From: a virus
Taxonomy: Duplodnaviria > Heunggongvirae > Uroviricota > Caudoviricetes
Virus record (IMG/VR): IMGVR_UViG_2695420687_000011
DNA: 4,111 nucleotides
Strand: one strand, 5' to 3'
Below, one piece after another: positions 1-4,111 of the stretch (its first letter is position 1; every line of letters begins with the position of its first letter). A program made the position numbers and the translations under genes. A model generated the notes under the pieces. That model was given only the letters and a program-made list of their open reading frames with translations, was not told where the DNA came from and did not search any database.

Positions 1-328
1 GATGACGCATGGCCTGTAACCGGATGCGGCGTTCACTCTGCATCCGGCTACACAAATTTACTCCGCCAGAAAAAGCTCCAGCAGCGAATTTAAAAACAAC
101 TTCCCATGTTCCGTTATCTGCCAGTAATCCGCACATTCGGTGAGATAGCCCTGAGCGATAGCCTCGTCTCATCCGTTCTTGCTCTTCAATCACCTCGTTA
201 TTGTTGACGATGACATCCTTAGCAAAACGAAATACCGGATAACCCGTATCTTTGAGTTTAAATACGCCGCCCCAGGCCAGGTTCTGAAGCGGGGCGACAA
301 AAAAAGTGGTCACGCTGAATACCAGACA
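1..328 (-). CDS. Partial ORF of unknown function running off the left edge; start uncertain (GTG at 328-326 or ATG at 172-170)
   Basis: Minus-strand frame is open from the TAA at RC 341-343 to position 1 (about 113 codons). It lies downstream of and co-directional with the Cro-like gene, where lambdoid phages carry cII/replication genes. No convincing SD, the frame reads through the REP-like hairpin, and the ambiguous bases at 384-391 obscure the upstream region. Confidence 0.3.
20..47. repeat. REP-like palindromic element: perfect 8-bp stem CCGGATGC (20-27) / GCATCCGG (40-47) with a 12-nt loop
   Basis: Inverted repeat read directly. The CCGGATGCGGCG and GCATCCGGCTAC arms resemble the E. coli REP consensus as I recall it (GCCGGATGCGGCG...TTATCCGGCCTAC). 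No T-run follows on either strand, so it is not an obvious terminator. Confidence 0.4.
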
Positions 329-383
329 CAGGCTGTCGAATTTATTCCAGCGTATTTTTTCGCGCTCTTTTTTTCGCCTGACG

Positions 384-391
384 NNANTNNN
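384..391. other. Run of ambiguous bases (nnantnnn) in the assembly
   Basis: Seven N characters at 384-385, 387 and 389-391, interrupted by a (386) and t (388). They break every reading frame across this point. Confidence 0.95.
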
Positions 392-443
392 TCTGACAGC
401 TTTCACGTACCACTCAGGCTGTTTTTCCACTTTCCAGTGATGC

Positions 444-704
444 TTACCCACGGCTTACCTCCTTTTCCTGTGGTTTTAACTCATTCCGGTTTTGATTAGA
501 TTGAAAGCGGGCAGGATAGAGAATCTGCATTTCGCTGATTTCTCCCTTAAAAAAATTGGCCAGACGCTCTGCCAGATCGATAGATGGAATTTGTTCCAGT
601 CTCTCAATACGACTCAGCGTCGCTGGATTAACCTGAACACCCGCAGCAACATGCTGCAAAGTAAATCCGTGCGCCTTACGCACATTTCGTAATGGTGATT
701 GCAT
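444..704 (-). CDS. Cro-like HTH transcriptional regulator (XRE family), 86 aa
   Basis: ATG at RC 702-704 preceded by SD GGAGG (RC of 709-713) with a 4-nt spacer. HTH-like segment GFTLQHVAAGVQVNPATLSRIERLEQ. Divergent from the CI-like gene across a 97-bp palindrome-rich region. TAA stop at RC 444-446. Confidence 0.8.
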   Translation of the reverse strand: MQSPLRNVRKAHGFTLQHVAAGVQVNPATLSRIERLEQIPSIDLAERLANFFKGEISEMQILYPARFQSNQNRNELKPQEKEVSRG

Positions 705-1539: not shown

Positions 1540-1549
1540 ACCCATTAAA

Positions 1550-1602
1550 TTGCATATCTCGCAACAAAAACACTTGCATAATGCGCAACTTCATTTTATC
1601 TT
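1550..1602 (+). promoter_or_regulatory. OL-like tandem operator palindromes with candidate rightward promoter
   Basis: Two 15-bp TTGC-N7-GCAA palindromes, TTGCATATCTCGCAA (1550-1564) and TTGCATAATGCGCAA (1574-1588), centres 24 bp apart, same half-sites as 767-781. Candidate promoter -35 TTGCAT (1574-1579), 17-bp spacer, -10 TATCTT (1597-1602); weak match, by eye. Confidence 0.4.
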
Positions 1603-2013
1603 TCTTTCCAGACAAACAAACAAGGTACTAACAAAATTTGGTTGTAACACGGCGTATGGCACATGCGTCGTTAGCGGTCTGGGGACGTTAAAGGGGACAA
1701 TCCACTCCTTGCTCGGGCAAACAAACCAGGTAGCCGGAATGTGCAAGTCAATGATGATGCTGATAAGACGCCTAACCAGCGTCGCGATTCGGTTTGACGC
1801 CTGGGAAGAGACCAGGGTGCAACGATGAGGGCATTTATGGAACCGCGACAAAGTGTGGTGCCGTAACTGGCTAAGTGCTCTCAGCGTTGTGGTAATCCGC
1901 GAAATGGCGCGGCGGTAAGTATGGCGGGGTTATTCCTTCCCCGTTGAGGACACCGGGTTGTCAGGTTGACCATACGCTTAAGTGACAAGCCCACCACAAC
2001 AGCCACTGCTTTG

Positions 2014-2060
2014 GCGGTACCAGTTTGTACACTTGCTTCCGGCTGGTACCGCTCTTTTTA
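2014..2060 (+). terminator. Terminator-like hairpin: 10-bp stem with T-tract
   Basis: GCGGTACCAG (2014-2023) pairs with CTGGTACCGC (2043-2052) around a 19-nt loop, followed by TCTTTTTA (2053-2060). The loop is long for a classical intrinsic terminator. Confidence 0.4.
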
Positions 2061-2148
2061 CAAAACAGAGAAGAGCATCACCGGACGACGGGCTCATAAC
2101 CCAATCCACCCGGGCGGCTGCCACCGCAGGTGCTCTTCTCTGTTTTGT
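2060..2148. repeat. Perfect 18-bp inverted repeat flanking a 53-bp GC-rich spacer
   Basis: ACAAAACAGAGAAGAGCA (2060-2077) is the exact reverse complement of TGCTCTTCTCTGTTTTGT (2131-2148), verified base by base. Sits 36 bp upstream of the yfdP-like SD. Function unknown. Confidence 0.85.
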
Positions 2149-2196
2149 GGAGAAACCAACCGACCTTGCAGGGTCGATATGATGAGGAGCAGCAAA

Positions 2197-2624: not shown

Positions 2625-3449
2625 ATGTCTCAGAACTTAGACGCAACCGCAATTAATCAAATCCATGCCCTTATTTCTGCTCAGGGTGTTAATGAAATTA
2701 TTAGTAAGATTGGTGCCGATGCTGTGGCATTGCCTGAGAATTTCCGCATTCATGATCTGGAAAAATTTAATTTAAATCGCTTCCGTTTCCGTGGTGCGCT
2801 TTCCACTGCCAGCATCGATGACTTTACCCGTTATTCTAAAGATCTTGCAGATGAAGGCACCCGCTGCTTTATCGATGCCGATAATATGCGTGCCGTCAGT
2901 GTGCTTAACCTGGGTACTATTGATGAACCAGGTCACGCAGATAACACCGCCACTCTCAAACTGAAAAAGACAGCACCGTTCTCTGCTCTGTTGTCTGTTA
3001 ATGGCGAGCGTAACTCCCAAAAGTCACTGGCAGAATGGATTGAAGACTGGGCCGACTACCTTGTGGGCTTTGATGCTAATGGTGACGCCATTCAGGCAAC
3101 CAAAGCGGCTGCGGCGATCCGTAAAATCACAATTGAAGCGAACCAGACCGCTGATTTTGAAGACAATGACTTCAGCGGCAAACGCTCCCTGATGGAGTCT
3201 GTCGAAGCGAAGACCAAAGACATTATGCCAGTGGCATTTGAATTTAAATGCGTTCCGTTTGAAGGCCTGAAAGAACGTCCGTTTAAATTACGCCTCAGCA
3301 TTATCACTGGCGATCGTCCTGTACTGGTTCTGCGCATTATTCAGCTGGAAGCGGTGCAGGAAGAAATGGCTAACGAATTTCGTGATCTGCTTGTTGAGAA
3401 ATTTAAAGACAGCAAAGTAGAAACCTTTATTGGTACTTTCACCGCCTGA
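2625..3449 (+). CDS. yfdQ: YfdQ-like prophage protein (DUF2303 family), 274 aa
   Basis: ATG 2625 preceded by SD GAGGA (2614-2618) with a 6-nt spacer; 274-codon ORF with TGA stop 3447-3449. Sequence ([21 protein letters not shown]...) and length match my recollection of K-12 YfdQ; not verified. Confidence 0.85.
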
Positions 3450-3461
3450 TTTCATTACTGC

Positions 3462-3483
3462 AAATGCCCCTGCGGGGGCATTT
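3462..3483 (+). terminator. GC-rich hairpin between yfdQ-like and yfdR-like genes (terminator or mRNA stability element)
   Basis: AAATGCCCC (3462-3470), loop TGCG, GGGGCATTT (3475-3483): 9-bp stem whose A/T ends give a short T-run (CATTTAT). Begins 13 bp after the yfdQ stop. Confidence 0.3.
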
Positions 3484-3576
3484 ATGGAAACATAATTTAC
3501 TCAATAATCGCCGGATGGTGAGGGCTTCCTTTTACCAGAATTCAGCGCGGTGCAGCGCATATACGTGGAGAACAAA

Positions 3577-3936
3577 ATGTCATTTATTAAAACTTTTTCC
3601 GGGAAGCATTTTTATTATGACAAGATAAATAAAGACGACATCGTTATTAACGATATCGCGGTTTCCCTTTCAAATATCTGTCGCTTTGCAGGACATCTTT
3701 CACACTTCTACAGCGTCGCCCAACATGCGGTGCTTTGCAGCCAGCTGGTACCGCAGGAATTTGCTTTTGAAGCGTTAATGCATGATGCAACAGAAGCATA
3801 TTGCCAGGACATCCCCGCACCACTGAAACGCCTTCTTCCTGACTATAAACGGATGGAAGAAAAAATAGACGCCGTAATCCGTGAGAAATACGGGTTACCT
3901 CCTGTTTGCTGGTTAATCAGGCAGTTACCGGCATAG
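3577..3936 (+). CDS. yfdR: YfdR-like HD-domain protein, apparently 3'-truncated (119 codons; the K-12 protein is longer as I recall)
   Basis: ATG 3577 preceded by GGAGA (3566-3570). HD-superfamily signature H...HD present (GHLSHFYSVAQH, ALMHDATEAY), but the ORF ends 9 codons after KYGLPPV (CWLIRQLPA then TAG at 3934-3936), before the distal Asp expected in HD domains. Sequence character changes near 3906. Confidence 0.7.
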   Translation: MSFIKTFSGKHFYYDKINKDDIVINDIAVSLSNICRFAGHLSHFYSVAQHAVLCSQLVPQEFAFEALMHDATEAYCQDIPAPLKRLLPDYKRMEEKIDAVIREKYGLPPVCWLIRQLPA

Positions 3937-4111
3937 TTCCAGATCATCTTGATTGGAACATCCAGCTTATCTTTACCACGAACACCGTCACGCAGCGCCG
4001 TCATCTCCGGGCCGCGTTCAATCGCATCGGTCCACATAAACATGGAAATGCTGGTCTGGATCGGATTCTCGAGAGTAGGCATACGAACAAACGGTAAGCT
4101 GTATGAACCTT
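3843..4111 (-). CDS. C-terminal part of an unidentified minus-strand ORF entering from beyond the right edge
   Basis: Minus-strand frame is open from 4111 to the stop at RC 3843-3845 (...GSYSLPFVRMPTLENPIQTSISMFMWTDAIERGPEMTALRDGVRGKDKLDVPIKMIWNYAGN...). Its last ~21 codons are antisense to the yfdR-like 3' end. Product not recognised. Confidence 0.45.
   Translation of the reverse strand, partial: GSYSLPFVRMPTLENPIQTSISMFMWTDAIERGPEMTALRDGVRGKDKLDVPIKMIWNYAGNCLINQQTGGNPYFSRITASIFSSIRL

Follow-up and report, generated by a model that had tools for sequence, protein, structure and literature searches.

A candidate modular RNA leader with a covarying, pseudoknotted element in the early-left region of a lambdoid prophage

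The window analysed here is a 4,111-nt stretch of tailed-phage DNA (Caudoviricetes; IMG/VR record IMGVR_UViG_2695420687_000011), and the subject is its bases 1540-2196, which lie between a cI-like repressor gene and yfdP. A cro-like helix-turn-helix (HTH) gene is found on the minus strand at 444-704, followed by the cI-like gene, which encodes a repressor of the HTH and S24-peptidase type, at 802-1494. Beyond the region are yfdP (2197-2559), for which RefSeq genomes have an annotation at the corresponding position, then yfdQ/DUF2303 (2625-3449) and a yfdR gene that is truncated. The order cro-like gene, cI-like gene, leader, yfdP, yfdQ, yfdR is the same in RefSeq E. coli prophages and is also annotated in phages mEp460, cdtI, SfII, Stx2a_WGPS2 and 1720a-02. 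In mEp460, cdtI, Stx2a_WGPS2 and 1720a-02 the gap from the repressor gene to the homologue of yfdP is 700-780 nt of unannotated or dubiously annotated DNA, and no N gene is annotated in these four sister phages or in the others examined. Set against lambda, 1540-2196 occupies the position of PL, nutL and N.

The RNA features and signals described below are on the plus strand unless stated otherwise. An intrinsic terminator of the repressor gene was picked up by the terminator scan at 1515-1532 (-11.8 kcal/mol, z -3.8), and the element at this position is annotated as a terminator in phage SfII. An earlier reading of the window from its letters alone (the sequence-only reading) had placed operator-like palindromes and a promoter candidate at 1550-1602. 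The palindromes are there, as two 15-bp sites of the form TTGC-N7-GCAA at 1550-1564 and 1574-1588, starting 24 bp apart and not assigned to a strand; the same pattern recurs at 767-781, between the cro-like and cI-like genes (repeat family D1). The promoter candidate could be located at 1574-1602 (-35 TTGCAT, 1574-1579; 17-nt spacer; -10 TATCTT, 1597-1602), overlapping the operator at 1574-1588, and phage SfII, of the same immunity type, conserves it together with both operator-like sites, but the candidate agrees with the consensus at 7 of 12 positions and falls below the threshold of the promoter scan. Its place, after the repressor gene and on an operator, is that of the early-left promoter of the sister phages, and transcription from it would start near 1609. 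A sigma-54 promoter considered at TGGCAC (1658-1663) was dropped by eye, the -12 element being absent.

Comparison with phages and E. coli genomes by BLAST, together with an alignment of 130 viral loci, revealed sharp breakpoints at about 1630, 1747, 1835, 1892-1900 and 1992. The region has the appearance of a mosaic of separately mobile RNA modules, here called A, B1, C and D, that are common to Qin, e14, P1 and epsilon15-like phages. Module A covers about 1647-1892 and would be an RNA of ~250 nt, strongly supported by covariation. This is the most striking part of the region, and here the sequence-only reading had marked no structure. Its pseudoknotted core (1647-1825) was modelled as a hand-built structure of 31 pairs on an alignment of 26 sequences less than 95% identical (alignment A3), together with a covariance model that scores 147 bits on the window copy. 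The hairpins H1 (1650-1655/1665-1670), H4 (1768-1771/1779-1782) and H5 (1800-1804/1812-1816, loop GAAGAGA) all covary, as does the base of P2 (1674-1681/1727-1734), which encloses a variable hairpin with a conserved CCUUG. The H4 loop, (C/A)ACC, and a downstream GGU(G/U) are predicted to form an H-type pseudoknot, PK2 (AACC 1774-1777 with GGUU 1791-1794 in the window), which covaries, with CG in 22 sequences and AU in four. A second pseudoknot, PK1, is proposed between GCACAU (1659-1664) and AUGUGC (1739-1744); these strands are perfectly complementary and invariant, and therefore provide no covariation evidence. RNAalifold applied to alignment A3 paired them in place of part of H1; of the two, only H1 covaries, and both were kept, H1 as a hairpin and GCACAU/AUGUGC as PK1. 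A helix closing the core, between the 5′ flank and 1818-1825, was dropped by eye as it is not conserved.

The 31 tested pairs of module A are 98.4% paired across alignment A3 and 11 of them show compensatory changes. None of 500 column shuffles matched the observed pair counts, and with the partners slid out of register pairing was 27-45%. At four positions G.U pairs are frequent, which would be C.A mismatches on the other strand, and this places the RNA on the plus strand, in the PL direction. Folding energy alone does not assign a strand, since a 596-nt stretch folds at z -3.6 on both; the covariation does. The homologues were gathered by exact-match patterns, which inflates invariance in the pattern regions and narrows diversity, for B1 especially, and the 19 invariant bases in a row within the core are the same string as was used to gather loci.

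By distant BLAST, 1831 of 5426 complete E. coli genomes carry module A, with 1910 matches on chromosomes and 554 on plasmids; in the 30 RefSeq matches listed, the annotation beneath it was blank or gave a neighbouring tRNA-Arg, except for one hypothetical protein. The interval 1636-1890 has counterparts in the spacer from trnI to ban in phages P1 and P7, which is unannotated (78%), and in the stretch directly 5′ of tRNA-Arg(UCU) in phiV10-type epsilon15-like phages (Uetakevirus; ~82%), with weaker matches (76-79%) to part of this interval in SPN1S, Tyrion, a Klebsiella phage and the HK97-like phage mEp390. In mEp390 a TTGACA-18-TACATT sequence stands ~50 nt ahead of module A. An exact scan of one genome per species with the invariant 19-mer, GGTAGCCGGAATGTGCAAG, returned 24 loci, 22 of them in Kosakonia, Citrobacter, Klebsiella, Kluyvera, Buttiauxella, Phytobacter, Superficieibacter, Pseudescherichia, Pseudocitrobacter, Enterobacter, Escherichia and Candidatus Erwinia dacicola. 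The aligned sequences are all from enterobacteria or their phages save one, on a metagenome-assembled genome (MAG) contig labelled Bacillota (L155); this 1.7-kb contig carries a full, typical module A and is probably contamination or mis-binned enterobacterial phage DNA. A second MAG locus, labelled Oscillospiraceae (L143), shares only the 19-mer, aligns nowhere else and is likely a chance match. In the complete genome of mEp460 the covariance model matched once, at PL, and it had no match in the fetched stretches of SfII, Qin, e14 and HK022. In SfII, which has the same repressor, operators and promoter as the window, the first ~45 nt of A remain, with a 7-nt deletion of UAUGGCA; they are followed (locus 3040-3900) by ~600 nt of unrelated sequence and then by an e14-like B2 element annotated as the coding sequence SfII_35.

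Module A did not resemble a known family. Rfam 15 gave nothing credible at E<=10 for two divergent copies (300-nt inputs) and no match to it at E<=0.1 on four sister loci. The hits obtained over the window, two sub-regions and five sister loci were to DicF, STnc100, tRNA, C4 and isrK, all outside the window, so that the Rfam search proposed by the sequence-only reading assigned the structured RNA of the window to no family. The exact sequence strings of A and B1 had no occurrence in the searchable literature.

The 3′ domain of module A, A2 (1820-1889), is a helix of CAACGAUGAGGGCA (1820-1833) with UGCUCUCAGCGUUG (1876-1889) around a hypervariable insert. Compensatory changes are seen at five of its 17 predicted pairs (11 sequences), and in the tRNA-bearing sister phages the helix ends flush with base 1 of tRNA-Arg. 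In SPN1S (~1620-1720 of the fetched locus) and in one further locus (L097) the insert holds two tRNA T-arm-like sequences, CTGGTTCAATTCCAG and GTCAGTTCGATTCGGAC, at which ARAGORN called no tRNA.

At the end of A begins a slot with exchangeable contents: B1 here, an STnc100-like RNA in mEp460 and e14, and tRNA-Arg(UCU) in epsilon15-like phages. Counted over non-redundant loci, the slot is filled by B1 in 39, by the STnc100-like element B2 (which starts UGGUGAA) in 30 and by tRNA-Arg in 29, while a further 26 non-redundant loci, of the P1 and mEp390 types, are without the A2 helix and the slot. Module B1 (1886-2000) is a pre-DicF element closed by a helix of GUUGUGGU (1886-1893) with ACCACAAC (1993-2000). 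Within it are a hairpin at 1897-1901/1908-1912, a variable hairpin at 1925-1943 and two crossing helices (1919-1924/1970-1975 and 1955-1963/1983-1991). The variable hairpin is the CGGGG-n9-CCCCG element picked out in the sequence-only reading, and its loop is always CU-rich in homologues. The 39 pairs of B1 are 93% paired and 10 have compensatory changes, a result matched by none of 500 shuffles. Bases 1886-1992 share ~97% identity with a stretch of the Qin prophage that lies in the ydfC-dicB interval and stops directly 5′ of DicF, and B1 is homologous to the 'dicF-like region' annotated in P1; such 'dicF-like' sequences were probably already described by Faubladier and Bouche in 1994 and in the P1 genome paper. 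Neither ARAGORN nor the Rfam tRNA model detected a tRNA or transfer-messenger RNA in the window, B1 included, and the window has no match to STnc100 (RF02076; gathering score 47 bits). Two further features were dropped by eye: a tRNA-like NCCA after B1, where CC is present in ~11 of 15 sequences and in the wrong register, and an antiterminator pairing of the GGCGGUA of B1 with the 3′ arm of C, which is not conserved with the terminator of P1.

Module C (2013-2059) is predicted to be an intrinsic (Rho-independent) terminator of the DicF family, with a G+C-rich hairpin directly before a U run. The strands GCGGTACCAG and CTGGTACCGC (2014-2023/2043-2052) extend to a 13-bp stem (2013-2053) followed by C-UUUUU, with the U tract at 2055-2059, and the fold has an energy of -21.2 kcal/mol (z -4.3). 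The terminator scan missed it because its loop is longer than 8 nt. The 5′ arm, UUUGGCGGUACCAGUUU, is identical to DicF at 16 of 17 positions (alignment A1), and a terminator of the same family follows the slot in most slot-bearing loci, at a distance fixed for each cargo type. The terminator-like hairpin that the sequence-only reading had drawn at 2014-2060 is present as stated and belongs to this family. In e14 the same terminator variant is accompanied by module D (2059-2149), a long hairpin with a ~21-bp stem and a branched top. Its 25-nt arms (2060-2084/2124-2148) are 88% complementary around an 18-bp perfect core, which is the inverted repeat previously noted at 2060-2148, and it folds at -47.9 kcal/mol (z -7.3). 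Common to e14 and many prophages, D shows one compensatory change, from G-C to A-U, in a single locus (L198), and it would be a hairpin of the RNase III-substrate type. A small hairpin at 2161-2176 (z -1.2, not significant alone) precedes the Shine-Dalgarno sequence GAGGAG (2184-2189) and the ATG of yfdP at 2197.

Related loci show other arrangements of such elements. In a Superficieibacter electus prophage (L139) a B2-type 3′ end, GCCGGAGATCAGCGCCGGCCACCACAAC, lies 2-3 nt before H1 of module A, from which it follows that modules can chain head to tail. In two Phytobacter prophages with an mEp390-type context and without A2, ARAGORN calls a 79-nt 'tRNA-Ile (AAT)' (L137 2210-2288 and L157 1186-1264) on the same strand as A and ~500 nt downstream. 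Sub-threshold matches to STnc100 are seen in Qin right after DicF (4182-4391), in P1 between upl and tciA (2071-2190) and in e14 ahead of the DicF-like terminator (2830-3051); STnc100/PasD-like elements, as these sequence matches suggest, belong to the same interchangeable module set. In mEp460 the minus strand at 855-1043, in or next to the antirepressor gene, matches the C4 antisense RNA (83.6 bits) and isrK (67 bits), and this is a P1/P7-type immI module inside a lambdoid phage.

With a probability of roughly 0.55, we read 1540-2196 as the untranslated RNA-module leader of a repressor-controlled early-left (PL) operon in an N-less lambdoid prophage of the SfV/cdtI/mEp460 type, and as a DicF-style precursor, not a dead gene. 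The long structured leader or non-coding RNA proposed from the sequence alone is borne out by the covariation in module A, the A2 helix and B1, and in the alignment with related prophages the predicted structures proved to be conserved. A model of precursor and processing is suggested by the homology of B1-C to the dicBF locus and by the beads-on-a-string layout, as seen in the P1 order of trnI, 13 nt, A and ban, in the abutment of B2 on A in one prophage and in the flush junction of A with tRNA. By analogy with the dicBF operon of Qin, loss of the repressor would allow PL to make a non-coding precursor. Most polymerases would stop at C, which would act as an attenuator for yfdPQR through xis, and read-through transcripts would feed these genes. 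The precursor may be cut at module junctions, with RNase E, RNase III at D and, where the slot holds a tRNA, RNase P as candidate enzymes. The products would be stable RNAs, module A alone and a terminator-ended B1-C, the latter possibly of the Hfq-binding type, with its CU-rich loop and without the 5′ seed of DicF.

Several points weigh against this interpretation. The promoter candidate is weak by consensus, and the promoter, termination at C and all of the processing steps are inferred. An RNase P cut at 1889/1890, in particular, would be an analogy from the tRNA-bearing loci, as B1 is without tRNA features. The covariation counts take no account of phylogeny. The 13-bp stem of C leaves the expression of the downstream genes, including xis, unexplained. 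Module A is assigned no function by the precursor model, and the very high conservation of its core fits a simple stable RNA no better than one that binds a ligand, a protein or polymerase. A related and more tentative proposal, for which we would offer a little less than even odds, is that module A represents an undescribed class of large pseudoknotted RNA of enterobacterial temperate phages with a biochemical activity of its own, which might be self-cleavage or the binding of a small molecule, of a host enzyme or of RNA polymerase. It would travel between lambdoid, P1 and epsilon15-like phages as a cassette with a slot for tRNA or small RNA cargo and a DicF-type terminator.

It is possible to assign A, or A with B1, a role in cis, as a processive antiterminator like the put RNA of HK022 that would take up its fold as the PL transcript emerges, bind RNA polymerase, carry it past C and later terminators and so replace N. 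All the A-bearing lambdoid phages examined are without N and yet have a strong terminator between PL and the early-left genes; in lambdoid contexts A lies 10-50 nt after the promoter, its core is invariant and pseudoknotted, and the put RNA provides a precedent for antitermination without a protein (PMC9378689). Module A, however, has no sequence resemblance to putL or putR, and mEp460 has its single copy at PL with none after PR. SfII, deposited as a complete genome, has the same immunity region and PL with only the broken remnant of A, while Qin and P1 have B1 and a terminator before expressed genes without A. Two terminators come after A and tRNA-Arg in epsilon15-like phages, in the manner of a self-contained RNA gene, and the P1 copy is ~2.3 kb from Pban, just before ban and with no terminator after it. 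An antiterminator of this kind would seem unlikely and is not favoured.

Less probable again is a role for A as a sensor, whether a riboswitch or another kind, or as a ribozyme that cleaves itself, setting downstream expression or processing in response to a metabolite or signal. Junction and pseudoknot bases that do not vary, beside peripheral hairpins that vary freely, are the usual pattern of an aptamer or ribozyme, and A is always in the sense orientation upstream of genes or RNA genes. The bases CGUUG also have two alternative partners, CAACG of A2 and, as GUUGUGGU, the 3′ strand of B1. Against this, no expression platform is conserved next to the core, which is followed by A2, by the ban ribosome-binding site in P1 or by other sequence in the mEp390-type loci; no Rfam riboswitch or ribozyme class matched at E<=10; and the downstream genes have no common function that would indicate a ligand.

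The observation in the sequence-only reading that these ~650 bp lack a convincing open reading frame (ORF) held on closer inspection. The longest ORFs are of 92 aa on the plus strand, with a TTG start inside the operator, and 86 aa on the minus strand, and neither the ORFs nor any stop-to-stop piece of >=30 aa matched Pfam or NCBIfam. No open frame is shared by the 26 diverged module A homologues on either strand, and their lengths differ by non-multiples of three. Two ORF fragments over hairpins C and D match the PHROG families phrog_3651 and phrog_33599, of unknown function; these ORFs are broken in the window, and they span the long hairpin, so that a similar ORF is present on each strand. 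The annotated proteins YmfH of e14, gp36 and gp37 of mEp460 and gp40 of cdtI overlie the RNA modules (2830-3174, 3092-3645 and 3301-3756, respectively, of the fetched loci). Together with the two PHROG families they probably represent ORF calls over structured DNA that does not code. In spite of these hypothetical proteins and PHROG matches, a decayed protein gene, for instance a lost N-like or accessory gene and one of the options first entertained, or small proteins on either strand, would be very improbable, with no protein-family match, no conserved frame, mostly nothing annotated under A among the RefSeq matches listed, no feature across the leader in the Stx2c phage records listed, and substitutions that keep base pairs and not codons.

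Module A has covariation support as strong as that of many curated families; roughly one complete E. coli genome in three carries it, as does P1, and it has no Rfam match. It was not found in the K-12 Qin and e14 stretches examined, a possible reason for its being overlooked in K-12 transcriptomics. On this view DicF is one cargo among the interchangeable modules of a conserved non-coding island in prophage early operons. N-less lambdoid phages, including Stx2a-, Stx2c- and cdt-converting phages, appear to put a strong terminator before their early-left genes, xis among them, and the leader gives a handle on how these genes are expressed. For annotation, several 'hypothetical proteins' and the two PHROG families that lie over RNA hairpins could be cleaned up.

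The prophage piece in the window is only ~3.45 kb long. At the left end (window 1-455), 170-381 is ~90.6% identical to E. coli opgE, and at the right end (3905-4111), 3907-4111 is ~92.7% identical to dmsA on the minus strand; these two genes we take to be far apart in K-12. Truncation of yfdR occurs near 3905, and there are ambiguous bases at 384-391. The piece could be what is left of a small prophage in an Escherichia other than E. coli, or it could stem from a rearrangement or a chimeric assembly. On the far left, at 10-55, a REP-like palindrome (GCCTGTAACCGGATGCGGCG...GCATCCGGCTACAC) fits host intergenic DNA.

Ornate non-coding RNAs are known from other phages and prophages, among them GOLLD, ROOL and the T4 stable RNAs 'species 1 and 2', and are often beside or co-transcribed with tRNA genes. 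GOLLD and ROOL are in Rfam and had no match here, and module A is smaller. The leader of the lambda N gene carries nutL and an RNase III hairpin ahead of N, and the region studied here resembles it in being a candidate PL leader with a long RNase III-type hairpin just before the ribosome-binding site of the first gene. It differs in that N is missing and neither boxA nor boxB is conserved, boxA-like strings being judged by eye: those at 1876-1882 and 2050-2063 are in a helix or terminator tail and vary among homologues. No N-like ORF with boxA and boxB was found after PL, nor any conserved ORF in 1540-2196 or across the module A homologues. The Gp17/nut system of mEp021 was set aside, as the papers on it concern a different phage group.

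With putL/putR of HK022 the leader shares a structured RNA just after PL in an N-less lambdoid phage and ahead of terminators. The put elements are, however, ~70 nt long with two stems and follow both PL and PR, whereas A is ~250 nt, single-copy and without shared sequence; by eye nothing in the window was alike beyond a short GCGCGGCGG string. Unlike put, A is also found in non-lambdoid phages beside tRNA genes. The likeness to STnc100/PasD lies in the slot, in or next to which e14, mEp460 and Qin (after DicF) carry the STnc100-like B2, and in a GUGGU...ACCAC closing helix common to B1 and the B2/STnc100-like elements. B2 scores 29-34 bits against the gathering score of 47, and B1 of the window gives no match. 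The location described for PasD is close to Q and the lysis genes and is not PL (bioRxiv 10.64898/2026.05.13.724894).

The ban operon leader of P1 has a B1 homologue and a terminator just after the C1-controlled Pban, and between trnI and ban it has a module A core scoring 150 bits. In P1, unlike the window, A and B1 are ~2.2 kb apart and in the opposite order, A is without the A2 helix and runs straight into the ban ribosome-binding site, and the B1 part alone is annotated in the record.

The one relative that has been examined by experiment is the dicBF operon of Qin, whose untranslated region is the source of DicF (RF00039); protein genes ydfABC lie upstream there and there is no module A. 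DicF acquires its 3′ end through termination or RNase III cleavage, while RNase E cuts its 5′ end (PMC5069750). The window does not have the single-stranded 5′ seed, UUUCUGGUGAC, that precedes the hairpin in DicF: in alignment A1 the 19 nt of Qin bearing the seed, TTATCAATTTTCTGGTGACG, are absent from both the window and e14. The loop of the C hairpin also differs from that of DicF, whose loop is the region that pairs with ftsZ (PMC5069750). The Rfam DicF model (gathering score 48 bits) gave no match in the window at E<=1, nor in 1880-2200 at E<=10, while the true DicF of Qin scores 76.7 bits and the e14 variant 28.5 bits. What the window does share with this system is a B1 that is ~97% identical, a DicF-type terminator hairpin starting UUUGGCGGUAUCAGUUU with the same 5′ arm and a U tract, and the context of a lambdoid prophage, where B1 lies upstream of the terminator in what would be a repressor-controlled early-left operon ahead of small genes.

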